A stretch of 64,000 bases of DNA, from assembly GCA_965645245.1 (NCBI GenBank), contig OZ287069.1:2728001-2792000 (forward strand), in the 5' to 3' direction. Positions 9,601-64,000 of the stretch are shown in pieces. Source of the stretch: Massalongia carnosa (lineage: Eukaryota). Each line of letters begins with the position of its first letter. Position 1 is the stretch's first letter. A program made the position numbers and the translations under genes. Below the pieces are notes generated by a model, which saw only the letters and a program-made list of their open reading frames with translations, was not told the DNA's origin and did not search any database.

Positions 9601-9828
9601 GTACACAATCAAGCTACGAAACAAGGATCCAACGCTTATACCAGCTCGTGTAGTCAAGCCAGTCTGCTACTCGTCAGGATTCTTGCTTCTCAAGATAGAG
9701 AAAACCTGCGTCGAGTCCTGTCTGTTTACAGTGCAACACAAGAACGAGCTCTTTTCGATCCAAAGTGCAAAGTTAAGACTTCTTTTTTCTCTGACTGGCT
9801 TAACTTTTGTTCTTCTAACATCAAGTAA
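6697..9828 (+). CDS. POL5: DNA polymerase phi / Pol5 (MYBBP1A-like, rRNA biogenesis), 4 exons: 6697-7056, 7117-7702, 7753-8888, 8935-9828
   Basis: Motifs LRRLVRGLCSGRKAARLGF, QEERDHHFGRLFG, KHWLREECGW, SEERKYWGF, acidic DEDMNDEQM..LD and FKNRVLDLL. Canonical introns restore the frame. Confidence 0.93.
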
Positions 9829-29800: not shown

Positions 29801-30641
29801 GTGCTCGCATATCTGACGACGAAGCATCTGCATCGCTAAAGATTGCTAGTTTCTGTCGCCCTCCCCGAGAGGTCGAAGAGCTGCTGATGGCCAAGGAAGT
29901 TCTTTGCGCTTGAGGATCTGCAGGCCTGGGTGTAGACAGCGCGAAAGGATCTACTTTCGCAACCAAAGCTGGCCGCATAGCGGGCAAAGCTGGTGAAGAT
30001 GGTTCATCTCCGTTCTGGACTCGCTGCTCGAATCGATTCTGAAACTCACCGAACTTTCGCACTAGGCGTTCGGCTGGTCGAGCTTCTCGGTCTATACCAA
30101 GTTTGTATACCTCATCCGCTTGCAACCATCTCCCAGCGCCTTCAAGCCATGCGGCAAATTCTTCGTAGAACAATGCTAGACCTTCCCCGATGTTGTGTCT
30201 CGCCAAGTATGCAAAGGTCTCTCTGGGAGCATCCGAGAAGAGACGAATGTAGGTAAGCCATAGCTTGAGGTACCGAGGATCATTCTTGTAGTGTGGTGCG
30301 GATTGAAAGGCTTTTGTAGCACGCTCGAGTAATGGCCTTAGTTGTGACTCTGGAGTTGCCTGTGCCGACGGATAGGCGCTCAAAGTCCATTTGACATAGC
30401 GGTCGTAAATGTCCAGCGGGTCGTCGGAATCAGAGATAGCGATGATCTCTAACTCGTATTCCTGTCGAGTTACATCGTTGAGGTTTCGTGTATCTCCCGG
30501 AGTGGGTGTGGATGAGAGTAGTGACGGAGGCGCAAAAGTCGAGGCCAGTGCCTTTGCAGATCGTCCTCCAGGGAGCGACTGGATATTTTCTTTGTGCTCT
30601 TCGATGATGTCGAAGTTGATTAGGTCCTCCATCGCCGACAT
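26817..30641 (-). CDS. BUB1: Spindle checkpoint kinase Bub1/BubR1 (SldA), 3 exons: 30641-29646, 29560-29113, 29065-26817
   Basis: N-terminal KEN box (KENIQSLPGGRS), Mad3/Bub1 TPR domain (DDPLDIYDRY, YKNDPRYLKLW), GLEBS motif (EEMSFEELRA) and kinase (ELGKGAFAPVY, HGDLKADN, IDFGRGID). Confidence 0.96.
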
Positions 30642-30813
30642 GTGGAATCACGAATCGATCAAAAAGACAGGCACAGCAAGCATCTCGGATTATAATTCCG
30701 CTGTTGGATGCCCTCAAAACAAATATGGTTTGTTGTTGCTCTCGTTGACTGGGCAATCATAACCTATTTTTAGAGTTTTGTTTTGGCAAATATCATAAGG
30801 ATATTTAGGTATG

Positions 30814-32139
30814 CACGCGGGTGACAAAATAAATTGCAACGTGTAAGCGAATTTACCCCCCTTTTTTATTCAAATTTTCATCTCATCATCAACCATCATC
30901 TGCATAGCTGATAAAATTCATCTAAATTACATGAGATCAATAACCAGTCATCGCCCCCTTTGCATCTTTCACCTCTTTCAATCTTTTGGGCATGGATAAC
31001 ACCCTTTCATTGATAAATTCCTGACTGACTCGAGCCCATCCCTCCCTAACCAGCTGCTCCAAACTTGCATCGTCCCAATGAGGAAATTTACGAACATGCT
31101 GCTTTGCGGGCTGCCAGCAATTTTCAATGGGAGCTAGATCAGGAGATGAAGAACAATTGAAATAGTGCTCTAAATCGTGATCTAACTTCCACTTTTTGAC
31201 CGCGTTTCGTCTCTTGCCCGTGCCATGACCAGAGTCTCCATCTTCTTCAAGTACGAAGTCATCTCCATGCTCCAACCAGGGCTTGACGACGGGATCAAGA
31301 ATAGCGTCAATATACACCTGATGAGTCATTTTTCCATTGCTATTGCTGGGCACATCGTAGAAGTAGATATCCGACTTGAAATTGTAACCAACTGCTGCCC
31401 AGCAGTGCTTTCTTTTACGATCTTTCTCAGGTGGTGCATCACGATGCTGAATACAATCCCAACGATATCTTGTTCCGGGCTTACGAATGATTCGTAACTG
31501 TCCTTCAGGCCCGTAGCCAAAATGAATCTCATCGCTGAATCGTACGCGATGCCAGTCTTCGGACCGAGGATATTTATTTAACATAACTGTAGCAAATTCT
31601 TCTCTTCTTTCTTCTGATGCCATTGCCAGCCACCCTTTGACACAGGCTAGACATTTGTGATAATTCAAGGCAGCTGTAAGAGTTCTCTTCATTGTACGTC
31701 CCATCACGTCGGCCCCAATCTCCAGTGCTAAAGCATCCCATGTGTAGCGTTTCCTTCCAATTGTAGATCTTGATCCTGCAGAATGTGATCTGCCTCCTTC
31801 AGCTGATCATCACTAATCTTTCGCTTTCGACCCCGAGTCTCAACGAGAGAAGAATTGTGACGTGTGCGAGAAGAAGCTCCGCTTTTGATGATGTTATAGC
31901 CCGCGCGCTCGGCCACGCCAAATTCCTGAAAAATGGCCCGTGGATCGAATGGAATTGCATGTGAGATGAGAAATTTGATAAGCTCCTTGAACTTTGGCCT
32001 TTGTGGGAGTATCATAATGAGGCTTTTTGGGTCGAGACATTGATGATGAGATAAAAAGTTGAAAAAAAGGAGGGTGTTTTGATGGGGCATTCAGGGGTAA
32101 ATTCGCTTACACGTTGCAATTTATTTTGTCACCCGCGTG
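30814..32139 (-). mobile_element. Tc1/IS630-type DNA transposon, 1326 bp, with 46-bp TIRs and a 5-bp flanking direct repeat GTATG
   Basis: Perfect TIRs at 30814-30859 and 32094-32139; GTATG at 30809-30813 and 32140-32144. Confidence 0.95.
30937..32040 (-). pseudogene. DDE (Tc1-like, DD38E spacing) transposase with two frameshifts
   Basis: ATG at 32040 (MSRPKKPHYDTPTKAKVQGA), +1 frameshift near 31974, GRKRKIS, -1 frameshift near 31750, then WHRVRFSDE, HCWAAVG, LEEDGDSGH and SPDLAPIENCW. Confidence 0.9.
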
Positions 32140-47154: not shown

Positions 47155-50100
47155 CTACCACCCCCTCCTCCGACCTCTTTCCTCTCCCCCCCTCTCCTTT
47201 CTCCTCTCCCGCTTCCTCTCCCCCTTCTTTCTCTTTTCCTTCTCCCTTCGCTCCGGCTCCGCCACCGCCCCAATCCTTCGCTTAGCCTTCCTCCCCTCCC
47301 TCCGCTCCTTTACCCCCTCCCTCACCCTTGCTAACAACCTTACATACTCCGTCGTTCCCATCCGCTTCTGCAGCAGCGCCATTGTCTCCGCGCTATTCGA
47401 AACGAGCGCCTTGTACGTGGCTGTGAATGCATCATCCGTAGAGAAAGGGGCTGCAATGGCCGAGTCAGTGAGATTGTGGAGCGGCAGGAGGACAGTTTGG
47501 AGATGTGGCGTGAGGATACGAAGCGGAATATGGGTGCAGAGGGCAGTGAGCAGGACGAGAGATGCCTTTAAAGGGATCAAGGACAAGGCACGGGTAGTTA
47601 GCGGCCCTTTTCGGATAAGAGCGGAGGCGCGTTCGATGACGAAGGCGAGAGCTGTTTTTCCGCTAGAGGGCTCTGAGGTCTCGTCTTCGGAATCGTCGGC
47701 ATCGTCGTCAAGAAGTTCGTTCTCGATTTGCTGTTCCGTTGGCTGCCACAATAGGGACGTCTTACCCATGATCCTGCCGAGGAAAATCAAGATCCGCACG
47801 CTTTGGTTAGCAAGTTCTTCGCTGACGTCGGTGACTTGCAGGGAAGCTAGTAGGACGCTTGCGATCCCTACTATCTCATCCCCTCTTAGCCACAAGCCGC
47901 CTGATCCCTGAAGGGGCAATGCCAGTTCTTCGGCGTCAGCGTTCTTCCTGGCGAAATCGGCGTAATAGGCCCCGAGTAAGTTGGCGGCGGAAAGCTTTAC
48001 CCAGGCGTGGGGGAACGAGAGAATTTGGCGGATACTGGCCCATACAGGCGCAAATTTGGATGTGAAGGCTGAATTCGAATATAGCTGGGTGATCTTTGTA
48101 AATGTTTGGAGAGCAAAGTACAGTAACTCCCACTCAGCGTTTTCTGAGCCGGCAAGATTACCTTTAAGGATTTGGGCAATATGTGAATGTAGAAAGGGCA
48201 ACTCTTTCTCACTTTTCTTCGGGTCTACATTAAGATAAAGGTTATGTAGCTGGAGTGCAGCCCTGACAAGAAGAGGCTGTTCGGATTGGTCAAGCCAAGT
48301 GCGAAGGAGTGTCAAGAATGATTTGGTCCTTTTAGCGTCAGCTCGTTCGAAAGACGTCTTCAATAATACACCGGCCATTTCCCGACATGTGGCAGACTCA
48401 TCGTTAACCATGACCATGACTAGTGGAACCATGAAAGATTCAATGATGTCCTGAATCATATCCTCGCCCACTTTCAAGAACAGTAGATGGATTACCTCCA
48501 TTACTGATTGGCGGCCCTCTTGATGCTTGTAGTCTAGATTACGGATTAGAAAACTCAATTGCTTGGAAAAGCGTGCTTTCCCTTGTGGATACTCCATGAG
48601 AAACTGAAAGTATACGCCTCGAGCCAAGTCACGGGCACCTCTTGTTTGATTGGTTACCATGATGGTTGTAACTGCATCGAGTACTTCGTAGACTTCTGCA
48701 ATTACAACCTTGCGCGCCATGACAGCCTTCAGGAAATTGAAAACCACACCTTGGCGATCGGGCTGTTCCAAATCTGGTATAAGACGCTTCAGAAGATACG
48801 CCAGGTCTGTTTCCTTGATCTCCTTCCCTCTCCGTTCCCGAAGTATCGCGGATACTAGTTTCAGAGCTGCTTGCGTAAGTTCAGAATTTGTTGAGACTGA
48901 AGCTTTGAAGATCTTCACGCACGCAGCAAGATAATTGCCAGCATTTTCATCAATCTCTTTGACAGGAACCTTGATGATTGTTGCGAGCAGACGGAGCGCG
49001 GATATTTGAACTTCGTCACAGGATTCAGTTATAGCGTCACTGATGATAGGTATGAACCCCGATATATTCGCGGGTATTCGAAGGTTGTCATATTTGCCAA
49101 GCACGGATCGGAGCACATCCAGGGAGAACCGAACAAGCTTATAGCGGTATGAAGAAGTGCTTCCACCTGTTGTAGATTTACTAGCTCCTTTTGAGTTCAC
49201 AAGAAATCTTTTGTTCCGGTGGTCATCACGAGAGGTTCTTTCCTTGAACGAGCCTCCATCCTGGTAAACCTCTCGAATGATCTCATGGCAAAAGACCAGG
49301 ACTTGCCGATCTTGCATAGCTTCATTTTGTAGTAAACCAACTGTAACTCGCCTAAAAAGCTCATCTATCTTTTTTACCATTTTCAGATCCAGTTTTTCTT
49401 CTAGCAGAACCTGCAAAGGTCGAATCAGATGCACAAAGTTCTCTACCAAAACGGTCTTAGATATGAGTTCCATAGAGTCATAACTCTTGCTACTTTTTAC
49501 TTCTTTCATTTTACTAATGTATTCTTCGGCATCTTTTTCCAACCCGGTAGCTCCAAATATATCATCCATAATTATCGAGACAATCTGGGGCAGGCAGTAA
49601 TCTGAATCCCCAACCTTGAAGATCGGCGCTATGGCGACGAGTATGGAGTGTACTGTAAAAGATAAAACATGTAGCTGATAACCCCGAGCCAGTGCACTTC
49701 GCAACTCTTTCAGAACAAACCCAAAACATTGAGGGCCTATCAGAGTGGCGATTTCCACGAGCGTCTTTCTAGTCATGTCTCTGGACTCTTGAGATCGACT
49801 TCGCAGTATATTACACACATCTGTGAGCACAGCTGGTAAGAGATCTTTCATCCGATCAGACGGTAGAAGCATAAGTAGTTTAACCGTAGACACTGCCATA
49901 GGAACACGAAGACTAACAGTTGATTCGTCTTTGTCATGAAGATATTTTAATAGCAAAGGCAGCAGGTTATCTGCCAAATCCCCTGTAAGCTTCTCTGGCT
50001 TTGGTAGAGTAGCCGAGAGATTGCTTTGACAATATTCCAAAGACAACGATATGCCGTTAATAGCATTTTCTTCATTCGCTTCGCTTGTTCTAGTTTTCTT

Positions 50101-53100
50101 GACTTCAGCCGCTTGGCCCAATGTATCAATTATAACCCCAAGAAGCCTAATTATTGTCTTCTCAAGGTTGGGCTTGCTTAGAATGTAGCTGTTGTATCTT
50201 CTGAACATGGCTCTGAATTGAGACCATTCCAGAGATGAGGCGAGGGCCCCAATTGCTAGGATTGTCTCGGCAGCAAGATTATGTGCACTCTCGTCTTCAG
50301 CTTTATTGAAAATGAAATGCTCGATTAACGGCATGAAGAAGTGAGCAACGTTAACGCTGTGGAGATTGAATTGACGGGCTCCGTTGGCTAATCGGCGCAG
50401 GGCACGGAGCCGCCGATGCTGTTGTATATGAAGTACATTACCGAAGAATGACGCTTCCTCGTCCTCTATTACCAATAGCACATACATATCGTTAATCTCT
50501 TCCCATCCAGGGTTATGGCGGACAAGATGAGCCATAACACCTAAATACTCTGCACGAACCAGCTCGGAAGGTTCAAAGGCTCCTTTACGGATGGCTGGCA
50601 ATAAAATAAGTTTGACAAGAACAGATGCTCCGTCTCCTTCGTTAAACTTGTTTGTCTCGACGAAGCGCCGGAGAGCGAAAGATGCATTAGATCTAATTGC
50701 TAACTCTTCCGTGTCTTTAATGTAATATAACATGTTGTACAGAAGTGGTCGCCATTGTTTTGGCGAGAAATTCTGGTATTTCATTTCATTGACAGTGTTG
50801 AAAGCCTTCAGCCGCTCGTCAAAATCTGGCTCATCAAGCTTTCCTGGTAGGAACGAGTTTAGGCTTGTGCAAAGCCCTGCCACTTCTTCGAGCTCACTAT
50901 CTTTTGCAGCCAATACGGTTAAGACTTGTGACAACTTCCATCGATTGGTTTGGTCCTTGAAATATCCAAAAAGCGAGGAGATTGTACGGAAGATCCGATC
51001 CTGTAGATCATTGAGAGAATGGATGTGAGCCAATGGCAGAAAATTCTGGAGGATCTGTAATAGATCACCCTTAATCCGAGGATTAACTCGATGGGATGGT
51101 TGATCAAGAAGAAACGTTGATATCTCGAGAAGGTTCCCTGCTTGAGACGAACCTGTAACCCATGGAGCTAACGAGGAGACAAGCCCAATTGTAGAACCCA
51201 AAATCTCTTTGCTGGGACTTTTTCGAAGCAAACCACCCACCGGGCCTAGAATCATGTCCATATTCCGGCGCAGTACTTTTTGTACGATAACCTCTTCCTT
51301 TGAGGAGCCGTCCATTTCATATTCTCTAGCAGTAGATACGTTGCATAAATTGATAATTTTTTTCAAAATCTCCTCTAGAATATAGAGCTTAACTTCCTCT
51401 TTTGCTGAGGGAACGTCCAAACAGTCAACAACCCGACTCATTAGACTAGGATCGTAGTCTGCCAAAAAGGAAACAGTATCCAGTGATGAAGCCCATGTTG
51501 AGAAGAGCTGCAGTAGCCCCGAAACAGATTGGGCTGTTTCAACTGGAAGCCTCTGAAGTCGCGGACTTATTAGTTCTACGAATATCGTGGACATATACGG
51601 TTCCATTTCTTTGCTCGGGCAATGGCGGAATATTAAGGTGAGACACTGCATACCGACTTGTCGGACAGCCTTAAACAGGGACGTTTGGGAAGCCTCCCGA
51701 GCATCTAACTCTGTTTTGGTTAGTTCTCGTGTAGCCTTAATGAGGCAGTAGAGAAGCGCTTCCGTGATCTGTCTTGCATATGGCGCTATCTGGCCGCCAA
51801 GCGTTTCCAACATGTCCTTTGTCATATGGACGAATCCAACTTGTTTCCGAGCATTAAAGTGGCTTTGTGATACACGCCCTTCTGCCAAATGAAAATCCTG
51901 CAAAATGTCCAGGTTGGCCAGGGAGCCAAGAATTATTTGAATAAACTCGCCAAGATCTTTCTCTTTAAATCGAGACAAAGCTTCGAAAACAACTCTTCTT
52001 GTCACAGCTTGGCCTCTTTTCCCAGTGCCTACACCTTTCCCTGCAATTATTTTTCCATAAAGTATCCTTAGCAGAACAGGGACTAGATCTGGACGATGCT
52101 CAGCTCGAATTGCGTTATCATCGTGCAGGAATATTGAGATTTCTTCCCTGAACCTTGAATCATCCAACAAATTCATCAAGTTCTCCTGATATGGCTGGAT
52201 GCCTGGAATCTTCCAAGTAAAGATAGCCTTGAGAGCAAACCTCTGCATTTCAATGTCCCCATTCGCCAGCTGATTCCGCAAAGCATCAAATACTTCCAAT
52301 GATTGATATAACACCCTAGGATTAGTGAATGAGCAGAAAAGCTCAAGCATGGCTTTACGATTTTTATGAGGCAGTTTTTGATGTTCCATCGAGGCCTCTG
52401 GGTCCTTCAGTGATTCTCCTATCTCATCTCGCAAGTCGTGCACAGCCCAACGTAAGAATTGGGGTACAAGTTGACGTGAGTGTTTCTCAGCAATCCAAGG
52501 AATGCCTAAGAAGACCCGAAGAGCTAAGGCCGACGCTCCATCTACCTTTCGCGTCAATGGTTGATGACTTTGGGCGAATTTTTGGTTAATATGCTCGAAA
52601 GAGGCGTTCTTTTCCGATGCTATGGTCTCCAAGAGGTTTTCAACCCGTATAAGATTTGAGCATTGGAAGATAGTTAGAGGAAAGGCCTGAGTATGCTCTT
52701 GTTTCGACAAAGGAGTTTTTAGCGAAACATCTTGGGACTCTTCGAACCATCGGAATGCTATATCAGACACAACGGCCTCTCCGTATGTTGTATCAGATAT
52801 TTCCTTCAGAGCATTTATAGCATCATCCCAAACCTGCGCAAGTCTGTAAGTTAACAAACCAAAGCAGAAATTTGGAATAGCATCCTGAATCCAAGCATGG
52901 GACGAAGCTGATTCATAAAGGGAAGAGAGCTTCCGTATATGCATGGATACAGAACGACTTGACTGTAAGTCGAGCGGACTGTTTTCAATGGCCAAAGCTA
53001 CCGTGAGAATTTCTTTCTGCTCGTCATGGGTTTGTACGAGCAGATCTCTGAGAATCTGTAAGGAAAGGTTTCGAAGTATGTGATGAGAGGAACGCAAGTT

Positions 53101-54954
53101 TTTAATCAATACGTTAACCACTGATTCTATGACGTTGCCTGCTAATTCATGGTGATTTGCCTCCACGGAGAAATGAACTGCTTCAAGATACATTGGTAGA
53201 GTTCCGTATTGACTTGCAAGACTTAATATCTGAGGCAATGTATCAGATAGCCCAAACCCAACATGAGAAGAGTATTGTAAATAGGACTTTAAACCATGTC
53301 CGATAGAAAATTTCATCCTCCAGTCATTACTGAATGGCGATTGAACACTTTTTTGGATTAAATCACCTAAACTCCCTATGACTTGATTTATGGTTGATGC
53401 AGCCATTGACATGCAATTGAAGCTTTCAAGGTAAGCGCTGCAGAGCGTAACAAGATTGTTGTCAGTTTGTACTTCTTTGAAAGTCTTTACAATATGCTGT
53501 TGCCACGCATTTGGGCAGATAAGTTTCTTATCTTGGGTCTCCCCAAGTACTTTAGGCAAAGATAAGAGCAGCTCGAACTCATCTTCCTTCCAATGCGAAA
53601 GAACGAACTTAGAGAAATAGGGAAGAAGTAGATACTGGAAGCGATCTTGATCTAAGTCACAAAAGAAATTACAAAACGGTACGAAATATCTGATATTCTG
53701 GTCGGATGCAATCGTGTTCATGATTGAACGAACTTTAGGGATGACTATTTCTAACGGAGCCGCCTGGATGATTGCTGCTGCCGCATAGAAGACTTGTGGG
53801 ATGTTTCTACTCGTAGACTCTTTGTATTGCTCAAGCAAGGCTGCTAAAGCGTCGAAAACTGGTAGCCAGTCATGAATCCTCGTAGCTTTTCTCACCGTAA
53901 TGATGATGAACAGTAAACGCCCGTAAATTGAGACACTACTGTTGCCCCACTCTGTACTTCGTTTCCGAATGTCTTCGTAGACGACGTCTAAGATTGGTGA
54001 GAAGTTTGCTGCATCTGTATGGTGGACTAAAGCAACGGTAACTCCTAAAAGGACAGACTCTATTGTTGGCGTCGGAGAATCACCTCTGTCCAGAATCCGT
54101 TCCAACAAGCAGCGATAAAGATATGCTCCTGACGAGTGTAGTCGCCTATCAATGCCCTTGATAGATTCAACAATAAGAGTCATCACACCATGTTGGTAGA
54201 GATGGCATCTCTGTATTTGCTCTGCTGTCGAGACTAGATCGTCCAAGATGTAGCTAATTATGAGATCCAACGGCTTTGGATTCTTGGGATACAGCAAGGC
54301 AGCTTTCCTAAGAAGAAAAGACATGGCCTCAGCGGCGAATCTCGTAGTATAAAGTTTCTGCGGCTCTCGACCTAGCAACGGAGCCATGGTGGTGTACAAA
54401 GGTCTCAAATCTGGCAGTAGTAAGCGTGACAAATACTTGAAAAGCCATGCCAAACATGAGAAGCTCCACTCAATAACCTGAACGTCAGTATGCTTTGCAG
54501 CCACAGAAGCCACGACCGCAACAGCTTTTGCAAAGTGGCTCTCGAATCTGATGCCAAGGTCATGCGCAAATCTTGCTAACAGATCCAATAGTGGCTCCAA
54601 AGACAAGGGATCCCGTTTCTCAATGTAGGTAATCAGAATGGCCATTATATCTTGTTGGTAATGAAGAATCTGGGGCAAGCTCTGGCAAAGCGGCTCCGCC
54701 TCGTGAAGAAACACGGCGAAGTTTTCCGAAAGGTTGAGATCCCTCCATCGTTCCAGGCCTGCTTGTAAAAATGAGGTTGTAGATGCAATATCATTTGCTT
54801 CTATGTCGGTACGACGCACTCTGCGAATTGGATCAATATTGAGCTTTGCAATACGTTGATTGAAAGACTCGAATCGATGCTTCCTTGTTGATATAGTGCC
54901 TTTCTTTATCATCTTTATCGGCCTCTCCATCCTTCCGGCCAACGGGCCTGCCAT
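47155..54954 (-). CDS. UTP20: U3 snoRNP/SSU processome HEAT-repeat protein Utp20, single exon (~2600 aa)
   Basis: HRFESFNQRIAKLNIDP, LDEPDFDERL, HIQQHRRLRAL, LARGYQLHVLSFTVH, YISKMKEVK and a basic C-terminus. Confidence 0.96.
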   Translation of the reverse strand: MAGPLAGRMERPIKMIKKGTISTRKHRFESFNQRIAKLNIDPIRRVRRTDIEANDIASTTSFLQAGLERWRDLNLSENFAVFLHEAEPLCQSLPQILHYQQDIMAILITYIEKRDPLSLEPLLDLLARFAHDLGIRFESHFAKAVAVVASVAAKHTDVQVIEWSFSCLAWLFKYLSRLLLPDLRPLYTTMAPLLGREPQKLYTTRFAAEAMSFLLRKAALLYPKNPKPLDLIISYILDDLVSTAEQIQRCHLYQHGVMTLIVESIKGIDRRLHSSGAYLYRCLLERILDRGDSPTPTIESVLLGVTVALVHHTDAANFSPILDVVYEDIRKRSTEWGNSSVSIYGRLLFIIITVRKATRIHDWLPVFDALAALLEQYKESTSRNIPQVFYAAAAIIQAAPLEIVIPKVRSIMNTIASDQNIRYFVPFCNFFCDLDQDRFQYLLLPYFSKFVLSHWKEDEFELLLSLPKVLGETQDKKLICPNAWQQHIVKTFKEVQTDNNLVTLCSAYLESFNCMSMAASTINQVIGSLGDLIQKSVQSPFSNDWRMKFSIGHGLKSYLQYSSHVGFGLSDTLPQILSLASQYGTLPMYLEAVHFSVEANHHELAGNVIESVVNVLIKNLRSSHHILRNLSLQILRDLLVQTHDEQKEILTVALAIENSPLDLQSSRSVSMHIRKLSSLYESASSHAWIQDAIPNFCFGLLTYRLAQVWDDAINALKEISDTTYGEAVVSDIAFRWFEESQDVSLKTPLSKQEHTQAFPLTIFQCSNLIRVENLLETIASEKNASFEHINQKFAQSHQPLTRKVDGASALALRVFLGIPWIAEKHSRQLVPQFLRWAVHDLRDEIGESLKDPEASMEHQKLPHKNRKAMLELFCSFTNPRVLYQSLEVFDALRNQLANGDIEMQRFALKAIFTWKIPGIQPYQENLMNLLDDSRFREEISIFLHDDNAIRAEHRPDLVPVLLRILYGKIIAGKGVGTGKRGQAVTRRVVFEALSRFKEKDLGEFIQIILGSLANLDILQDFHLAEGRVSQSHFNARKQVGFVHMTKDMLETLGGQIAPYARQITEALLYCLIKATRELTKTELDAREASQTSLFKAVRQVGMQCLTLIFRHCPSKEMEPYMSTIFVELISPRLQRLPVETAQSVSGLLQLFSTWASSLDTVSFLADYDPSLMSRVVDCLDVPSAKEEVKLYILEEILKKIINLCNVSTAREYEMDGSSKEEVIVQKVLRRNMDMILGPVGGLLRKSPSKEILGSTIGLVSSLAPWVTGSSQAGNLLEISTFLLDQPSHRVNPRIKGDLLQILQNFLPLAHIHSLNDLQDRIFRTISSLFGYFKDQTNRWKLSQVLTVLAAKDSELEEVAGLCTSLNSFLPGKLDEPDFDERLKAFNTVNEMKYQNFSPKQWRPLLYNMLYYIKDTEELAIRSNASFALRRFVETNKFNEGDGASVLVKLILLPAIRKGAFEPSELVRAEYLGVMAHLVRHNPGWEEINDMYVLLVIEDEEASFFGNVLHIQQHRRLRALRRLANGARQFNLHSVNVAHFFMPLIEHFIFNKAEDESAHNLAAETILAIGALASSLEWSQFRAMFRRYNSYILSKPNLEKTIIRLLGVIIDTLGQAAEVKKTRTSEANEENAINGISLSLEYCQSNLSATLPKPEKLTGDLADNLLPLLLKYLHDKDESTVSLRVPMAVSTVKLLMLLPSDRMKDLLPAVLTDVCNILRSRSQESRDMTRKTLVEIATLIGPQCFGFVLKELRSALARGYQLHVLSFTVHSILVAIAPIFKVGDSDYCLPQIVSIIMDDIFGATGLEKDAEEYISKMKEVKSSKSYDSMELISKTVLVENFVHLIRPLQVLLEEKLDLKMVKKIDELFRRVTVGLLQNEAMQDRQVLVFCHEIIREVYQDGGSFKERTSRDDHRNKRFLVNSKGASKSTTGGSTSSYRYKLVRFSLDVLRSVLGKYDNLRIPANISGFIPIISDAITESCDEVQISALRLLATIIKVPVKEIDENAGNYLAACVKIFKASVSTNSELTQAALKLVSAILRERRGKEIKETDLAYLLKRLIPDLEQPDRQGVVFNFLKAVMARKVVIAEVYEVLDAVTTIMVTNQTRGARDLARGVYFQFLMEYPQGKARFSKQLSFLIRNLDYKHQEGRQSVMEVIHLLFLKVGEDMIQDIIESFMVPLVMVMVNDESATCREMAGVLLKTSFERADAKRTKSFLTLLRTWLDQSEQPLLVRAALQLHNLYLNVDPKKSEKELPFLHSHIAQILKGNLAGSENAEWELLYFALQTFTKITQLYSNSAFTSKFAPVWASIRQILSFPHAWVKLSAANLLGAYYADFARKNADAEELALPLQGSGGLWLRGDEIVGIASVLLASLQVTDVSEELANQSVRILIFLGRIMGKTSLLWQPTEQQIENELLDDDADDSEDETSEPSSGKTALAFVIERASALIRKGPLTTRALSLIPLKASLVLLTALCTHIPLRILTPHLQTVLLPLHNLTDSAIAAPFSTDDAFTATYKALVSNSAETMALLQKRMGTTEYVRLLARVREGVKERREGRKAKRRIGAVAEPERREKEKRKKGERKRERRKERGGEERGRRRGW

Positions 54955-55016
54955 ATAATGCAACTGCGAAGATATTAGGTGCTCCTAGAAACATGTGCAA
55001 AATGAAAGATTGTCAG

Positions 55017-55024
55017 GTCACGTG
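55017..55024. promoter_or_regulatory. GTCACGTG E-box ~60 bp upstream of the UTP20 start
   Basis: Motif read directly; matches the bHLH (Cbf1-type) consensus. Function is inferred. Confidence 0.3.
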
Positions 55025-55985
55025 TGTTTCATTGTAAGTTAGTATTGATCTCTGATTAGTTACCTTAAGGGCGGTTGGGGGTTTTCGGACATGGTCATGG
55101 AATGGTCTCAAGATCCCGGACATGTCTTCGCTAAAATGGGTACACCGGCAGGTTCCCGGTTTGAATGTTTTTTTGAGCGCTTTCCTGATTGAGATGACTC
55201 AACATTGTCCTACACGTGTAAGATAGCTTAAAATTCTGCTTGTGTCTGATGAGAAATATCTGCGGATAATATAGAGTCTGAAATCATTTTGAAAATATTA
55301 TAGTCTTGAAAAGGATATATCTTAGTGAACATTCATATTGGTATGAACAGTGCTTGCAGTAAAAAAGCATCTGGCAATGATTTGGAGATCGTCTCAGTTT
55401 TGACAAGATCTCAAGACCTTCAAGCTCGTGTTCCGGATAAAACGATCAGAAAACAATCTTATAAAAGATATCACGTTCATGCAACCTCGTTACAGCTGAG
55501 TTGTATTCGGGTTCACATGATGTATTCGCCCAGTTGATGGTTAGAGAAACAAGTTATTGATTTAGTGACAGCTTCTAATCTACAGCTCTATGAATGCTAT
55601 CATCCTCATGCCATGTTTCTCGTTCTCGTTGCTGTCTCGCACGATCTAGTCTTGAATCACTCCATCGAGTCCTTCCCGTACCTCCTCTCACAACATATAT
55701 GAAACTGATGAAACAAGGCAGACAAGAGACGTGCCTTGAGGATCTGAAGAATAAGACTGTTAGCTTGAATTGCAATATGCACAGAGAACATAACGTACCA
55801 AGTGCCTATGTAGAAGATAGGGTAGCCTAACGCAACAAATAAATTAGTCTCGGTCCTTTCATACAAGTTTGAATGCGAGAGATCAATCACCAAATTTATG
55901 ATGGAGAGTGTCAGCAAAACTCAGCTGTTCTGACCTGACAAACCCTTCTCGCCTGAGGAGATTCCAGAGGAGACTTCTAAGACTG

Positions 55986-56037
55986 CCTTCTCGGGGGCGT
56001 CCTTCTCGGAGGCGTCCTTCTCGGAAACGGCCTTCTC
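55986..56037. repeat. 15-bp tandem repeat (CCTTCTCGGRGGCGT)~3.5
   Basis: Read directly; translates as EKAVS/EKDAS/EKDAP on the minus strand. Confidence 0.8.
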
Positions 56038-56126
56038 CAATAAAGCCTGCTTTGGCATGACTCTAGGTTCTCTATCGTCTGTTAGCTGTAGTTGCATCAT
56101 CATCGTCAGCAGAATGAGAAGAACTC

Positions 56127-59100
56127 TTACAAAACTCCAGCAGCATTGAGTATGCTCAAACATTGCTTGACATGTTGTTCCTCCACCCGTAATTTAGCTT
56201 TGATGGCATTCGACACTTTGCTTGGTAATTTATCGTAAGTGACGTGAGGACTAATCCTCATATATTGCTGATCTTGACCGAACCGAGCATGAAAGAGCAG
56301 CCTCAACGCTCGATCAAGTACTTCGATGTCGTCCAAGTCCTCGACAGTGTAGATTCTTGTCGGTGACAAGCTCAACAAGTATCGTAAGTTTATTTCATCT
56401 TGATTGTATTGCTCCTGCTCGATGGAAGTTAGTTTGCTGTAATTTTGTCTCAACTTCTTGGTCGTTATCGTCTCCAAAACAATATCTTTCAAGGCAGTTA
56501 TCTCATCTCCGTCTCCATCACTTTGAAAAGCATCATCATTATCATCCGATGTCACCTCGGATTCCTCGTCATCGTTCTCCTCTTCGTTCTCACTGTCCTT
56601 AAATGACGAGTCTTCCTCAAACTGATCTGAAAATTCTTCGTCCACATCTTCATTCATGGATGCTTTGCCCTTCAACTTACGGCGCTTACCTTGACCATAC
56701 TCTTGATAAACATCATCTTGCAGCATTGTATCCGCGAATCTGTCAGGTCTCAGACGTTTTCGGGGTGTAGGATTCGTGACTGTATCGAGATCAAGATCCA
56801 ATGGATCTTGCACCGTGATAGCTAATTTACCGCCGGTCTCCTCGTCAAACTCGACATTCATCGAGTTATTTGAATCCTCTGTGGGAAGAAAATTCTTTTC
56901 CTTCAGAATCTCGTGTCCTCTCTGACTCTCGTGTGCCTCTTTTACGTATTTGTTTGACTCATTTAACAAGTCAACTAGTAGGTTCTGCACCTCTGACGAG
57001 AAGGATCGAGTGGCTAAGTCCACCACGGCCTTGTCTGTTTGCTTGGAGTCTCGATATTGATCATGAGAATTCTTTGTTACAACTCGAACAACCAACACGG
57101 GTTCGGTTTGAGAAACCTGCATGAAAATGCACCGATTAGATTTTCGTACCGGTACGAAGAAAGGTCACGCTCTTTTCAGATAACATACCCGGATTACTCG
57201 AGACCAAGCTTGAATTTCTGACGGTGCATTGATTGCTGGCGTTGCCACTAAAACCCGACAACAACATCTATCCAGATTTACTCCTTGCGCCGACACCTGA
57301 TACATTATTATCAAAATCAGTAAGGAATCTTTAGGATCACTGAATCTTTTAACAAGATTCACGCGCTCTAAATCCGTCAATCCAGCGTGTAACACTTCGG
57401 TCTCCACGTATGCAAAATTACACACGCTATCCCAGAAAAAGGCGTTGAGTGGTACATCTTCTGTAATCAATAGCGTCCGTGGCTTGTCCGTAACGATATG
57501 AGGTAATACATAAGTATGAATTTGATATAGTATGGACTTCATGGTGGGAGAACCGTAGGTCAGAAATTTGAGTTTTTCCGAACCAGTAGTAACATCAGAG
57601 TCTCCTTCTCGTTTCACAAGATTAATGATATGATGAGCAGTCACGCCTTTTGCTCGAAATCGGTTGATATCGTTGACCAAGGTGTTATGGCCTAGTTTTC
57701 GAAGCATGCGGTCGAGTCTACTGAGAAGAAGGGAGGCACTGGCGAGAGTTAAATGTCGTAATGGTGCTATGATGTGTGGAAAATTATCGGCTCCAGCTTT
57801 CTTGATAGCTGTAATTTGTGGCTTGAACAAATTCCCTGCATCCATACATTAGCTTTTATTTGCTTCTCAGATTCATATTGATATGAAGAATAAGCTAACC
57901 GAGCGTGAGCTCTATGTACCCATTGGGACTCCGCTGCTTCTTCTTCTTGATAAGTGAGCTCAACGGTTCTAACTTCGTGGCTTGGGATCATGGAGCGCAT
58001 AGAAAACAGTTTCATGATCATTGATCTTCAGGATGGAGGCAGTGGAGCGGCGAATCATTATCAGCTCGTCCATGTAGTGATAATGTTTTGCAATAAGCTG
58101 CACATCTTGAGTGAGCAACAAAGCTTCGATTCTGTATGACAGTTAATAAATGACGAAAAAGAGGTCGAGATTCGATTGTGCATGCCTCTTAGGATCCATG
58201 ACGATACGTCGTTTAGAATCCGTTTCGGACAACGACTGAATCGCTTCAAAGCTATGATAGGACTCCGCCGCGTGCTGCATCAGCCATTCACTCGAAGTCG
58301 GATTCATCAATATGTCTTGTTTTACCCGTGGCCATAAGATTAATAAAGGTCCGAGTATGTCCTAACAGACTCCTTAGAGATCATCAGCCCTTTTCATATC
58401 AATATGAAAACATTACTAATGAATCGTTGATGACGGGTGTAGCGGTCAAAAACCAGTGTACCTCAGCCTCGAGCTGCTTGATACTAGCAAAGATCTTGGT
58501 GCCAGGATGTCGCAATTTGTGGCCCTCATCTAAAAGAACTGGTCCAAATACTCCTGTCCATTTAGAGTTAAAGGTTTTCTTTTCTCTTCCACTTTTGCTC
58601 AATTTCGTATGTACAGAAAGAGTTCGGCTCGCAAAAGTATCGTAAGACGAAAGTATTACGACCTGTGAAGCGGTTGGATTGCTTTGATCAAAAATGTACC
58701 GCAAATGAGGAGGCCAATTCATCAGCTTTCTGAGAGCTTCACGCATTGCTGTTGCTGAAACCCAATTGATAGCAAATTTAGCGTTAATGGGTCTGTCTCC
58801 ATATGCGATTATTAGTGTAAGGGTTGGGAACTGTATAATTTCTTCTTGGCATTGATGCAAGACAATTCCACTCGGAGCAATGCAGAGTGCCGGTCGATGC
58901 GCAGCTATGATGTTCACGTCTCTCTCTGTCATGCATCGCGCGTAATACGCCAGAAAAAGTAATGCTGTATAGGTTTTTCCAAACCCCATTGTGTCAACAA
59001 CTATTCCACCAAATGTTTGAATACTCTCTAGTTTTTTTGCTGCCTTGGCCAGTTCGGGATCATTGACGCGTCCCGAGTCGATAGGTATTCTCCCACATGA

Positions 59101-61154
59101 TCGCTGTAGCATGAAAACTGCTCCATTTATCTGACTGTCAAGAAAGGAGACTTTGCAGTCTCCGATGAGGGTACAAACACTTCTGTCAAGCAGCTGTGCT
59201 TGACCGTGCTTCGAAATGAACTTCATGCCGAGTATTATCTTGCAGATAGCAATAGGTGGACCGGTCTGTGATGCGCTGCCTGTAAAGGCGTTTTGAATGT
59301 CGAAATATCGGTTGAGATCATGAACGGAATCGGGCTTTTCAAGACATGTTAGAGACAACTTCAAACTGATATGAGATTGAATAAATACCTCAGCTGAGAG
59401 AAGCGCGGTCTCGCTATCAGTTTGAGCTTGTTGTAGCTTCTCTCGCACCTTTTTATTAAGCTTCAAGATACTATTATCTTTCAAAGCCTTCGGCATCTGA
59501 CCGCAGACTTTGTCCAGTACATGATGTTGCCAGCGTAGCAGACCTTCTTCGGTAAAAACATCAAAGTTTTCATGATATAGAAGCATTTCCGAGCGTTGCG
59601 TTGAGTCAAAATATGACTGCGGAATGGATTTTTTTCGAGCAATCGTGGATCCATCAGACAAAAATTGCCGCAGTTTATTGTGCAAAGACGGCGAATAGGA
59701 TCCTTCCATTAAGCTAGGGTCCATGTTTTCCGTGTCATTTTGCATTGGCATAGTGTCCTCGAGCGCTTGTGAAGTTTGTGACATCTTCTCGAAAGCTTCA
59801 TCAATAGATCGAGTGCTCACTGGATCGATCACAGATCTCACAGCTACATCGTTGTCTTCCGTCACCTGAATGTCTTTCAGAATTGCCAAGAGTGGTCCGT
59901 CATGCTCATAGTCAAAGTCTTCATGTTCCTCAATGACATGCAGAGTATAAGAGAATATGAACTCGTCCACATCCTTTTTGGCAAGAAATTCCTGGACCTC
60001 CGACCAGGAAGCTGCAGTAGAGGGTTGATTTAAGTCGTAGATCAACAACCCTCGTATCGGTATGACTGTATTTCCTACAGTAAGACTCATTGTCAAGAAG
60101 TCTACACGAAGCTGTTCAAAGTGAAGTTGTCGGCGCAGAGTATCTCGCCACATCTCACCCGTTGGATATGCACGTGGATCTCGCTCTACTTGCACATTGC
60201 TCTCGGGAAGGCGTAAACCATTGAACATGCTTGTCAAGCTTTGAACTGAATTTGGTCTTCTGCTGACGATTCAGATACAATATGAAGGATTTTCGTATCA
60301 ATTCGGTTGGCTCGACAGAAGCAATAGTAATAGAAAGATCATCTTGCGGCTCCTCAGGCCGCATCCAAGAGGGTATCATGTCAGCAGAGATCAAAGCGGA
60401 TGCGTATGGTGAACTTTTTGCATTGACGAATGTTTCCCTCCACTTTGTTGGCGCGAGGACACATTGCAGAGACTTCAAAATTGAGTTGGTTCGGCTATAC
60501 CTTTCTAACTCGTCTTCTTTGAAATTTTGCAAGAGACCCAGTTTGGGATACTGTATGACAGTGTCGTTGAACGCGGGAATCTTGATATTTGGTATGTTCA
60601 AACTTATAATTTTTTCAAATCGGTTTGAAGCCGCTCTGTGTCTTTCAACATCATAAGATCTAGTAGACGAAACCTCATCAATGGCTTCTGCGAGTCGAAA
60701 AAGTATGGCGGCATATAGATAGTCCCTGCTATCATTGTTTTGACGCCTGTTGGCCCTATCATCCTGATCTGTAATAGGATATTTTGAAAGAAGCTGACCT
60801 AAGTCAGCTGGAAAAGCATCTGACAGGTCAGGAAGATCTCGAAGAAGCGCCAGAGGAGTTTTGACACTTCTCTGTTGGCAGTTTTGATGATATGGAATAT
60901 ACCATTCCAGTATAACACTACTGAACCGAAACTTCCTATATTCGGCGACATCGCTGTATCCTAAATAAGCGGCTGTCTTTGGTTCATTCTTGAAAAACTT
61001 GGCATGAGTGTCCAAGTTCTCATTTGTCATCTTTTTATCTATATCCTTCTTTACCGCTCTCCTCGTTTTTCTAGGCGTGATCGGGATCGCCTGAAAAAAG
61101 GTAAGTTAAAAGCTTTAGATGAAGATATTATGAGGAATAAACATTTTCTTCCAT
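56127..61154 (-). pseudogene. SNF2-family helicase-like gene with introns and several frameshifts
   Basis: GGIVVDTMGFGKT (motif I), LCIAPS (Ia), ILSSYDTF, LLDEGHKLRH (II), WFLTATPVIN (III), MIRRS, QGVNLD (V), EIQAWSRVIR (VI) and an acidic tail. Frameshifts near 60240, 58005 and 57846. Confidence 0.8.
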
Positions 61155-61496
61155 GATGTGGATAAGTAGAGGCTGAAATCTGTGATAATGCAATGTGAGA
61201 TGAGGTTGTATCTCAAAATCAAGTCAGACGATCATACCAGTTTAAGAACTGATGATCGAGAAGAGATCGATAGTAGTACTCAGATTAAGAAGGAATGAGC
61301 AATAGGATTGAAAGAACAAACCAATGACGGATGGGAAGAAAGATAAAGATGAGAAAAAAGGTAAAGATGGATGAAAAGGTAAAGATGAAAAAGGGTAGAT
61401 GAAGTGAAATGAAGATCAACATGATGTTTGAGGCTAGTAGCGAAAGTGTTGTCCTAAATTCACGCGACATCAGTTCAGTCGTCATGACGATTTTTC

Positions 61497-64000
61497 TTAC
61501 AAAAAGTTGATTCCCCATGTACAATGTAACAAATCCATGTCTGATTCTTTGTTACTGCTTGAACTTATGGTCGGCATAGTATGTGAGGATACTGGCTCAT
61601 TGAGTGTACGATTGATAGGAACAATGTAGATCTTATCTGGATCAACAAAGAATAACGGGATTATTCTATCCGTGTTTGTCAGTTGAAAGATGCTTAAATT
61701 TAGGACCTCGTATTTATAGGAAGCCGTCTCTAGCAGTCGAATCCAAAGGAACACTCGCTGAATATCCTCAAATGGTAGACAGTGAGTATAAATTTGTCGA
61801 AGCTGAGCATATGTGCCAGAGCGGATTCGAAGAAAGTCGCCAATATGCAATGAGAAACGTTTGCCGGTTGACCTGACAGTAAAGGAGCATTTTTCATACC
61901 AGTACAAAGGCTTGTTTCCCCATTGGACGCAGTTAAGGCCATACTCGATCATAGCAGTCTGCATCAGTTGCCTAAATCGGAGCTCTGTAGAGTTGGTTAT
62001 TCTGATAGGAAGACCTTGATTTTGTGCATAGGAAGGTTTGAGCTTTCCCCGCACTGCAGATTTTAGATATGAGGGAGATTCTAATAGACAAGTATTTGTC
62101 GACTCCTGATCGTCTGTTTGTGAGCGATCCCCGTGGAATAATAGACTCTCAAGAAGAGCCGGGCAGTTCCGCTTCAAACGAATCATTTGCAGAGTGATCT
62201 CCAAATCGGTATGACGAAACGAGCCATTCAAAAGAGCGACAACAGTGAAGAGGATAGCGGCTTTCACTAAAAGCTGTCGCTCTGGCTTTCGATGATTTGT
62301 TGACAATACAGCTTGCTTAAAAAAGCGATGTTTGTCTTCTCCAAAGAGTACATTAACGTTCCACAGAACACCATACTCCTGCATGACTCTTTCGAAATGT
62401 ATACCGATATGAAAGTTTGGCAGCTTATTGGCTTCGCCATTCCGAGCAGTCATTGACGCAGAAAGTCCCATGTTGGTATCTGATGCAAGATTATCAACGG
62501 ACGCCTCTTCAAATGAAGTGTCCGTGTCACCATCAAGGAAGTTTATGGATGTTTCAGAAATCGATGCTCGTCTAGAACTGGAAGACAACCCTTCAGTGAC
62601 AAAATCACTTTTCTCGTTGTCTTTCTTCTTTCCTTGTCCTTTTGGATTTTGTGCTGCATTCATCAGACCTAAAAAATATTGTCGAGCATTGATGATTTGA
62701 CTGTGAAATTCTTGACGATCTTTAAGGGATAACTCGAAAGACGAGATTAACGTGTTACTCCATGCGAGTTTCCCAAAGCAAAACACTATCAAATCTTCAT
62801 CTGAAGCGCAATGGCGACATTCTTTAGGAAACTGGATTTTTAATCCATTTCGAAAAGGCTGTCGTACATGATGGTTTCTTAACCAAGAGCGAAGAAGTAG
62901 AGGTATTACGACTGAGGCACGAGCGCATTCGCTCATACTCCATGAGGCCATATGTATAGCCGGAGACTGTATTCGACCCCAGCCAGGTGGAAACGGAAAA
63001 CAGTGCAAGGCAGCTGTAAACTCTTCAGCAGCCCGTTTCGTGAGTATTTTCGTGTAAAGAAGAGGGTACAATCTTCGTACCAGTCCGTAATACTCGCTAT
63101 GAGCCGGATCCGGTGGACAACTCATGATAAGATCAAGCGCCGGGGTTAATGTCTGAAGCGCAGAAGATTCGAATTTGAGCCCATTTCGTGTAAGATATGC
63201 CAGTCTCTTTGTCTTTCGTTTTATTGCTAGGCTTTTTTTTCGTATAGCCAACACCTCATGATGATAACGACCATGAAGTAGAATATCCCGCTGCAAATCT
63301 CCTCGATTATGAAGGCCCGCATCACAAAAGCGACAACAATAGTTGGCACGAGGCCCAAGAAACCCTCCGGAGGCTTGCTGCTGCTTCATATCACCAAGAT
63401 ATGCTAGAATCGGGGCCCAAGCCGCTTGTTTCTGTCCATTGATTTCAAGAATGCAACCACGATCCATGTTTCCCAAACTGGTATGAAGACAGTTCATCAC
63501 ATCGTTAAAATCAGATCCGTGCGGGCCAAGAGCAATGGTGTAAGCATTAAAACTCTTTTGACGTTCCGAGGCGGGCAAGCCTGCTGGCATGGCATAAACA
63601 CCTGTGATGGAACGATACATGTTTCGATATAACCCGAAATCGTCGATGAAAATGACTAGAGGATATGACTGAACTCCTTTAATTAGCTGTGAGATTAGGT
63701 ACTCTCGACCAAAGACCTCCAATTCTAATTCCGCTCGAATCGGTGATGAAAGATTGATTGATCTAAGATCTCCTCGCGTGACATTGAATATCTGACGAAT
63801 TAAGACAGGCGTTGTAGACCGTAACTGATCATCCCTACAAACTGCAACATCGAAACGGCGAGCTAGAACATGCTCGGATAAGACATCTTGATCCGCGTCT
63901 TCTATCAAAAGCAACTGATCTTCGGGCCAGTCAAACGTGACTGGAACTGAATATTCGTCGACGTTCTTTCTACTTATCAAAGGACGAACCCTGACAAGAG
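61497..64000 (-). CDS. Putative DDE transposase of CMC (EnSpm/CACTA)/Plavaka type; N-terminus lies beyond the window
   Basis: Frame is open to the window edge. Ordered motifs FIDDFGLYRN, LGDMKQQ, CCRFC, PPDPAHSE, LPNFH...H and GEDKHRFFK resemble the CMC D-D-CxxC-H-E layout; possible BAH-like C-terminus. Confidence 0.6.
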   Translation of the reverse strand, partial: LVRVRPLISRKNVDEYSVPVTFDWPEDQLLLIEDADQDVLSEHVLARRFDVAVCRDDQLRSTTPVLIRQIFNVTRGDLRSINLSSPIRAELELEVFGREYLISQLIKGVQSYPLVIFIDDFGLYRNMYRSITGVYAMPAGLPASERQKSFNAYTIALGPHGSDFNDVMNCLHTSLGNMDRGCILEINGQKQAAWAPILAYLGDMKQQQASGGFLGPRANYCCRFCDAGLHNRGDLQRDILLHGRYHHEVLAIRKKSLAIKRKTKRLAYLTRNGLKFESSALQTLTPALDLIMSCPPDPAHSEYYGLVRRLYPLLYTKILTKRAAEEFTAALHCFPFPPGWGRIQSPAIHMASWSMSECARASVVIPLLLRSWLRNHHVRQPFRNGLKIQFPKECRHCASDEDLIVFCFGKLAWSNTLISSFELSLKDRQEFHSQIINARQYFLGLMNAAQNPKGQGKKKDNEKSDFVTEGLSSSSRRASISETSINFLDGDTDTSFEEASVDNLASDTNMGLSASMTARNGEANKLPNFHIGIHFERVMQEYGVLWNVNVLFGEDKHRFFKQAVLSTNHRKPERQLLVKAAILFTVVALLNGSFRHTDLEITLQMIRLKRNCPALLESLLFHGDRSQTDDQESTNTCLLESPSYLKSAVRGKLKPSYAQNQGLPIRITNSTELRFRQLMQTAMIEYGLNCVQWGNKPLYWYEKCSFTVRSTGKRFSLHIGDFLRIRSGTYAQLRQIYTHCLPFEDIQRVFLWIRLLETASYKYEVLNLSIFQLTNTDRIIPLFFVDPDKIYIVPINRTLNEPVSSHTMPTISSSSNKESDMDLLHCTWGINFL

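Follow-up and report, generated by a model that had tools for sequence, protein, structure and literature searches.

A Probable CMCT-Clade Transposon in Massalongia carnosa Carrying a Transposase–BAH Fusion and a SNF2-Family ATPase Gene

Two Genes in One Repeat Unit

The stretch of 64,000 nt of the Massalongia carnosa genome studied here (GenBank assembly GCA_965645245.1, contig OZ287069.1, positions 2,728,001 to 2,792,000 of the forward strand; hereafter the window, with positions counted from its first letter) contains at its right-hand end, on the minus strand, a transposase gene that is cut by the window edge, followed by a gene of five exons for a SNF2-family ATPase and by a non-coding tail (Table 1). 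An earlier note, made from the letters and their open reading frames (ORFs) alone, had interpreted these two genes as a large DNA transposon that carries its own remodeller-like ATPase, and our analysis supports this interpretation. The two genes and the 1-kb tail form one repeat unit, of which roughly ten or more near-identical copies exist, and it is very likely that the unit is a single composite transposon carrying both genes. As to its nature, we consider that it is probably an autonomous-type cut-and-paste transposon of the CMCT (CACTA/Mirage/Chapaev/Transib) clade, distantly Plavaka-like, in which a transposase–BAH fusion is accompanied by a SNF2 gene, and that positions 55057–64000 hold most of one copy.

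The evidence for the repeat unit comes from four public runs (X1, X3, X4, and X6), which were compared with positions 54500–64000 of the window at a likeness of at least 85%; one public run with this stretch is labelled as lichen metagenome. Contigs of the element (55061–64000) are 10–17 times deeper than those of the flank, which contains UTP20 and is single-copy by contig depth, although contig depth is not the same as a copy count. In X1 the flank contig has a depth of 26.2 and the contigs of SNF2, spacer, and transposase have depths of 253.7–456.6, while in X3 the element contigs reach 25.8–60.8 and the flank is at ~3. The boundary on the left is sharp. The match of the X1 flank contig (34,079 nt) ends at 55056, after which 3,435 nt are unlike the window, and in X1, X3, and X4 loose ends occur before 55054, 55057, or 55061 with an agreement of the flank consensus of only 0.48–0.58, i.e., with differing flanks. 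The left (3′) end of the unit must, therefore, be placed at 55054–55061, some 100 nt upstream of the start codon of the essential gene UTP20 and ~1.07 kb further left than position 56127, where the earlier note had let the element begin. The 34-kb X1 contig that departs at 55056 may represent an empty site in another sample.

Protein clusters drawn at ≥90% identity tell the same story. The transposase falls in a 97%-identical cluster of 27 members, and the 15 of these that are listed come from contigs of 10 sizes, 9 of which are of Mb size. The SNF2 protein falls in a 97%-identical cluster of 18 members (15 listed), and five of the seven ENA contig sizes listed for it recur in the list of the transposase cluster. 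The possibility that the two genes are single-copy, which would have spoken against a transposon, is thus contradicted by their multiple copies, matching depth, and the boundary that the copies share in front of unlike flanks, even though one boundary only is seen. Self-blastn and tblastn did not reveal a second copy within the 64-kb window. For repeat-induced point mutation (RIP), the two indices calculated for the element (0.63 and 1.31) are the same as in its flanks and, consequently, there is no RIP signature by the customary thresholds.

The two genes are separated by a short spacer: from the transposase stop it is 391 nt to the opening of the SNF2 frame and 466 nt to the first ATG (61030), rather than the ~340 bp estimated previously. 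A repeat search of positions 55000–64000 gave two small tandem repeats, one in the spacer and one in the tail, next to short pairs at the level expected by chance, and neither a terminal inverted repeat (TIR) nor a target site duplication (TSD). Both tandem repeats could be binding sites.

Table 1. Features of the element, of its two genes, and of its left neighbour, in window positions.
Feature	Position	Strand	Details	Evidence
Repeated element, part within the window	55057..64000	-	5′ end beyond window	higher contig depth
Terminal non-coding region	55057..56126	-	1.07 kb, 3′ of SNF2 stop	depth as high as that of the genes
Tandem repeat in terminal non-coding region	55986-56037		15 nt x3.5	repeat search
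SNF2-family ATPase gene	56127..61030	-	five exons	tblastn, sequence reading, Pfam, motifs
SNF2 exon 1	61030-58417	-		
SNF2 exon 2	58361-58186	-		
SNF2 exon 3	58131-57900	-		
SNF2 exon 4	57835-57189	-		
SNF2 exon 5	57116-56127	-		
SNF2 intron 1	58362..58416	-	55 nt, GTAATG...TTAG	
SNF2 intron 2	58132..58185	-	54 nt, GC...AG in window copy, in-frame stop inside	
SNF2 intron 3	57836..57899	-	64 nt, GTTAGC...GCAG	sequence reading and frame arithmetic
SNF2 intron 4	57117..57188	-	72 nt, GTATGT...CTAAT...CAG, in-frame stop inside	
SNF2 lesion 1	60220..60221	-	17 nt missing relative to other copies, frame -1 to -2	
SNF2 lesion 2	58003..58006	-	one extra T in T run, frame -3 to -1	
SNF2 lesion 3	57815..57824	-	35-nt deletion between two copies of a 10-nt direct repeat	
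SNF2 acidic tract	56502..56648	-	26 D/E in 49 residues	
Intergenic spacer	61031..61496	-	transposase stop to first SNF2-frame ATG	
Tandem repeat in intergenic spacer	61330-61392		18 nt x3.5	repeat search
Transposase ORF	61497..63998	-	833 codons, stop codon 61497-61499, 5′ cut by window edge	
BAH-fold domain, C-terminal	61536..62066	-	amino acids 645-821	structure alignment
RAG1/Transib-like DDE core	62178..63683	-	amino acids 106-607	structure alignment, conservation
UTP20, left neighbour of the element	47155-54954			Pfam, 661 bits

The Transposase

The transposase ORF is open across all of its visible codons, as had been noted before (an ORF of >830 codons), and is truncated at its 5′ side by the window edge. 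Since relatives at 50–57% identity are 1150–1190 amino acids (aa) long, some 320–360 N-terminal codons lie outside the window. Among the named relatives, the nearest comes from Lasallia pustulata, a lichen fungus. All the D, D, CxxC, H, and E motifs listed in the earlier note are indeed present and in that order, i.e., FIDDFG with D119 (nt 63633–63650), LGDMKQ with D203, CCRFCD with C222 and C225, DPAHSE with H300, and FGEDKH with E554; in addition, NFHIGIH with H530 and H534 stands ahead of the last of these. In the alignment of 58 sequences D119, C222, H300, and E302 are invariant (58/58), and D203, C225, H530, H534, and E554 are kept in at least 90%. The occurrence of C222-x2-C225 and H530-x3-H534 between D203 and E554 is the arrangement of the CMCT clade.

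An AlphaFold model based on this alignment has a mean predicted local distance difference test (pLDDT) score of 85.1 and a predicted template modelling (pTM) score of 0.86. Foldseek returned 43 PDB matches for the model at E ≤ 0.001, and those shown are all RAG1 or BbRAGL from amphioxus. With VIA-align, residues 106–607 of the model match residues 587–1007 of the RAG1 chain with a Z score of 16.4 and a root-mean-square deviation of 4.3 over 374 residues, followed by BbRAGL (ProtoRAG; Z 15.3), HzTransib (13.9), and the P element transposase (11.5). The modelled core is, therefore, an RNase-H-fold DDE domain of the RAG1/Transib kind, and the fold check proposed for this protein has come out in favor of a transposase. 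The CxxC and HxxxH motifs sit at the positions of the zinc ligands of RAG1. The spacings D203–C222 (19 residues) and H534–E554 (20 residues) equal those between D708 and C727 (19) and between H942 and E962 (20) in mouse RAG1.

The C-terminal tail, in which a BAH-like domain had been suspected, is also supported by its predicted fold. Residues 645–821 match BAH domains with Z scores of 8.4–10.1 over 97–125 aligned residues (Foldseek E values of 0.013–0.038), the best being ZMET2 (Z 10.1, 125 aligned), ORC1 (9.4), BAHCC1 (8.9), the first BAH domain of DNMT1 (8.8), and TNRC18 (8.6). Pfam BAH does not match the tail of the transposase. The tail occurs in 17 of the 57 aligned relatives, and eight aromatic positions are kept in at least 15 of these 17.

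The SNF2-Family ATPase and Its Gene

The second gene was recognized before as SNF2-like, with helicase motifs and an acidic tail, and this holds: Pfam SNF2-rel_dom (PF00176) is matched with 58 bits (cutoff 24.9), and motifs I (GFGKT), II (DEGH), III (TATP), and VI (QAWSRVIR-VSQ, including both arginines) are present, with R1193, R1196, and Q1199 of motif VI invariant in 10 full-length relatives. Pfam Helicase_C scores 20 bits in the window piece, against a cutoff of 23.5 that is passed by the relatives P0112 and P0212. The protein is a divergent member of the SNF2 family, with a family-specific N-terminal half of ~650 residues and the acidic tail. The N-terminal half of the relative P0099 folds well (pLDDT >90 over about 1–225 and 245–380), and the matches of the structure comparison were taken up by the ATPase lobe. 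Residues 1–400 gave no usable match in the protein atlas.

None of the named SNF2 subfamilies (Rad5/16, Rad54, Snf2, ISWI) stands out for the ATPase. The best PDB match by sequence is RAD5 (1.7e-13), over a short stretch only, while lobe 1 of P0099 matches SRCAP, ALC1, Mot1, ISWI, and INO80 with Z scores of 16–18 that are tied across subfamilies. Neither a RING nor a HIRAN domain was detected by Pfam in the proteins of the family that were scanned. The family is narrow, with 583 out of 1.84 billion representatives at E ≤ 0.001, and its named members belong to the Pezizomycotina (Pseudogymnoascus, Blastenia, Peltula, Diplodia, Phyllosticta, Zasmidium, Elasticomyces, and Didymosphaeria). One of these, P0100 from the lichen fungus Blastenia crenularia (2330 aa), combines an OTT_1508-like deaminase domain (aa 321–391, 35 bits) with the same SNF2 family; this could reflect a genuine fusion or a gene model that has run two neighboring genes together.

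The gene structure was derived from tblastn with the full-length relatives P0100, P0102, P0108, and P0112, which align collinearly from ~61069 to 56136; because the similarity extends upstream to ~61069, the start codon is uncertain. These matches of the same gene show two frame changes and, within the last, long match, in-frame stops. The gene reported in the earlier note is thus real, but it has four introns and, in the window copy, three frame-breaking indels, so that not all genes of the element are intact here. The GC with which intron 2 begins (58185) points either to a GC-AG intron or to an additional lesion.

At each of the three indels frame-keeping forms exist among the contigs of the public runs. 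The extra 17 nt at lesion 1 are carried by the sole contig of X1 (315.6/315.6 of the depth) and the sole contig of X3 (34.6/34.6). One nucleotide fewer at lesion 2 is found in X1 (270.3/270.3), X3 (30.3/30.3), and X6 (2.1/2.1). At lesion 3, contigs of X1, X3, and X6 have 25 additional letters and show 57815–57824 twice, and this added stretch of 35 nt, read in frame by eye, aligns with the matching segment of P0102. X6 thus has the frame-keeping form at two of the three sites. With the three indels restored, exon 1 comprises 877 codons and exons 2–5 comprise 693, i.e., 1570 in total including the stop. Because the three frame breaks cannot be put down to introns and because contigs exist that keep the frame, the SNF2 copy in the window is a decayed one whereas the form of the family is open. 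The contigs of X6 (55158–58076), whose run label names a third organism, have a low depth and ~98.5% identity to the 3′ half of SNF2. Adapter-like letters stand at both of their ends, and introns 3 and 4 are retained; these contigs may be DNA or unspliced RNA and were not used as evidence for expression.

Occurrence of the Gene Pair Elsewhere

Two transposase homologues (1153 aa, 52–53% identity) come from contigs of 10,339 nt (P0095, from JGI) and 25,045 nt (P0003, from NCBI). Contigs of exactly these two sizes are also given for the SNF2 fragments P0103 and P0269, whose identity is 67% over 221 aa. We take P0095/P0103 and P0003/P0269 to share these contigs and, hence, the gene pair to be present in a second organism, on both of them, as would be expected if the genes travel together and as the earlier note had proposed to verify. 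More distant relatives of the transposase (28–50% identity) present another picture: in none of 54 metagenome loci, eight of which have at least 6 kb downstream of the match, was a gene of the SNF2 family found by tblastn (E ≤ 1e-5) and, therefore, the pairing seems confined to a sub-lineage. A Pfam scan of 35 of the 48 ORFs (≥220 aa) of these loci showed housekeeping genes or other transposons, with no recurrent accessory gene among them, and inverted-repeat searches in seven of the loci did not give convincing termini. The collections of genome contigs and viral contigs that were scanned contained no relative.

Probably One Transposon Carrying Both Genes

Although the interpretation as a single transposon of the CMCT clade is the best explanation of these data, a number of observations weigh against it. 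Some of these concern the class and the ends of the element. The window transposase has no match in Pfam at E ≤ 1, and in a Pfam scan of 40 family members (the window protein and 39 relatives) the Plavaka family PF18759 was touched by only 10, while its cutoff of 26.3 bits was passed by just two (P0025 with 29.3 bits and P0057 with 26.7 bits); no other transposase family was found in these 40 proteins. The window holds one terminus only, placed to ±4 nt, and the other end lies outside it. The letters at the left end, TAGTTACC (TA...), correspond to none of the starts reported for CMCT or Plavaka elements, although the exact first base is uncertain; the reported termini are CA..TG for CMCT and TGT..ACA or CATCA..TGATG for Plavaka, with TSDs of 2–5 bp (PMC12730594). 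Furthermore, contig depth does not count copies, and the pairing in the second organism was deduced indirectly, from equal contig sizes.

The other observations concern the ATPase gene and, at the same time, favor the alternative that survives best, namely that there is one transposon in which the SNF2 gene rides along as passive cargo, having been captured recently from a host by the sub-lineage and playing no part in transposition or in escape from silencing. None of the 54 distant transposase loci carries the gene, and the SNF2 relatives in other Pezizomycotina look low-copy, forming clusters of one or two members, and are possibly ordinary host genes. The window copy is broken, and at 58003 the frame-keeping form accounts for only 3038.7 of the depth of 8238.7 in X4, the rest breaking the frame. 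Among the 17 SNF2 coding variants listed (from the 40 variant places shown out of 431), 7 are synonymous and 10 non-synonymous, including one stop, which gives no clear sign of constraint in what is a small and selected sample. However, the pair has been kept in another organism, where the transposase is only 52–53% identical and the SNF2 fragment 67% identical to those of the window, X1 and X3 keep the frame at all three lesion sites in their sole contigs, and the catalytic motifs of the ATPase are intact. The chromatin-reader fold in the transposase itself also fits a chromatin-directed life style. On balance, we regard passive cargo as unlikely.

It could also be envisaged that the pair is part of, or cargo in, a larger element, either a Starship with a DUF3435 tyrosine recombinase, as the earlier note offered as an alternative, or a bigger composite transposon whose additional genes would lie past the window edge, on the upstream side. 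The unit does continue at its 5′ side beyond position 64000, as does the transposase with its N-terminus. Nevertheless, the repeat ends directly beside the housekeeping gene UTP20, no match to a tyrosine recombinase exists among the other ORFs of at least 250 aa in the window (16 in all), and the unit has a DDE transposase of its own with conserved catalytic residues. A larger element is, therefore, very unlikely, and the Starship alternative is not supported. Least likely is that a Plavaka-like transposon merely lies beside a host SNF2 gene in a stretch spread by segmental duplication: a single boundary lacking a visible TIR or TSD would allow this, but the roughly ten or more copies, which are spread over many contigs of Mb size and part into differing flanks at one sharp boundary, the similar depth across both genes and the tail, the single-copy state of the neighboring UTP20, and the pair on two contigs of another organism all argue against it.

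Comparison with Known Systems

Plavaka/CMCT elements of fungi have been found to carry TET/JBP genes (PMC12730594) and a giant Plavaka of red algae carries the genes PAG1-3, including those for methylase/SET and 2OG-oxygenase proteins (bioRxiv 10.1101/2025.02.11.637652). The element described here resembles Plavaka in that some relatives of its transposase touch PF18759 and in that accessory genes for DNA or chromatin marks are known in Plavaka elements too. It differs in that the window transposase itself does not match PF18759, in that the visible terminus shows none of the reported Plavaka starts, and in its ascomycete host, SNF2 accessory gene, and BAH-fold transposase tail, PlavakaA/B being elements of the Agaricomycotina. 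The previous designation as CMC/Plavaka-like is, therefore, upheld as far as the CMCT DDE core is concerned, whereas the likeness to Plavaka is a distant one and lacks a Pfam match in the window protein. If placed in this group, the element would widen the cargo of Plavaka-like/CMCT transposons from modifiers of DNA and histones (TET/JBP, SET, methylase) to an ATP-driven remodeller.

In structure, RAG1, ProtoRAG, and Transib are the best matches across the whole catalytic region, with a sequence identity of 9–10%; a RAG2-like partner is absent, and the second gene encodes a SNF2 ATPase instead. In the vertebrate RAG1/RAG2 system it is the PHD finger of RAG2 that reads chromatin, a task that would here fall to the fused BAH domain. 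The element provides a natural point of comparison for the question of how recombinases of the RAG type came to be linked with the reading of chromatin. With EnSpm/CACTA elements it shares the CMC-type architecture of two genes on one strand. The second gene of CACTA elements, however, encodes a TnpA-type end-binding protein and not a SNF2-family ATPase, and there are no CACTA termini at the visible end.

Other links between transposons and SNF2 proteins have been mentioned. The transposons “Inton” and “Enton” are said, in one sentence that cites a meeting report, to encode a SNF2 helicase (PMC3627910); like the element in the window they would be DNA transposons with a SNF2 helicase as non-transposase protein, a comparison that extends as far as this single sentence, and no further description of them was found in the literature searched. 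A repeat family of Stagonospora nodorum, described as a Rad5/SNF2-like helicase cluster, may be a related SNF2-bearing repeat. A survey of fusions that involve transposable elements listed 823 gene models, with SNF2_N ranking third after PHD and Chromo (bioRxiv 10.1101/2021.11.30.470311). Where transposons have captured chromatin domains in this way, as in chromodomain integrases and in fusions with PHD, Chromo, SNF2_N, and SET, the principle of recruiting readers or remodellers is shared; those are single gene models, whereas here a BAH fold is fused to the transposase and SNF2 is a separate gene with introns. In the literature searched, Plavaka was not found linked with SNF2, the sole co-mention being unrelated to elements, and the titles and abstracts do not mention a transposase fused to BAH. 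The architecture of a transposase–BAH fusion plus SNF2 is thus not described within the literature searched, the supplements of both bioRxiv papers excepted.

Possible Role of Chromatin in the Life Cycle of the Element

DNA transposons have to cut and insert in chromatin and to evade silencing, but few of them are known to carry tools for this. The element in the window pairs a RAG1-like transposase with the fold of a histone reader and travels with a remodeller-type ATPase, which suggests that it handles chromatin by itself. The transposase would excise and insert the element by DDE chemistry. According to the titles of the structure entries, the BAH fold of ORC1, DNMT1, ZMET2, BAHCC1, and TNRC18 binds methylated histone tails and, hence, the transposase may be tethered by its tail to nucleosomes with a particular mark. 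Driven by ATP, the SNF2 ATPase might shift nucleosomes or other proteins, or strip them off, at the ends of the element or at the target; alternatively, it could counter host silencing or help to repair the gap left by excision. For broken copies such as that in the window, intact ones would supply the function in trans. A role of the SNF2 protein in the life cycle of the element is quite possible, although we would not call it the likelier outcome.

A bolder and tentative proposal, which we doubt more than we believe, is that of a self-sufficient chromatin-access transposon, in which a RAG1-type recombinase reads a mark through its BAH domain and brings along a SNF2 motor by which nucleosomes, or silencing proteins, are removed or shifted at ends and targets, an independent counterpart of the solution found with the PHD finger of RAG2. 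The SNF2 family, fused to a deaminase in another lichen fungus, may in that case serve time and again as weapon or as shield when transposons and the defence of fungal genomes come into conflict. As the element is young, many-copied, and without RIP signature, both the steering of insertion by the reader and the help of SNF2 in transposition or against silencing are directly testable.

Other Features of the Window

The rest of the window contains housekeeping genes, a LINE-like (long interspersed nuclear element) ORF, and a Tc1/mariner-type ORF. The LINE-like ORF (1153 aa), with reverse transcriptase and endonuclease domains, is followed by an ORF of 267 aa with Helicase_C, together spanning 13665–17904. 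The gene for DNA polymerase phi (Pol5-like) is split over two ORFs (7707–8918 and 8926–9828), with a single stop or a short intron in between. The Tc1/mariner-type DDE_3 ORF (30937–31806, minus strand) adjoins a Mad3/BUB1 ORF in the stretch 29634–31806.

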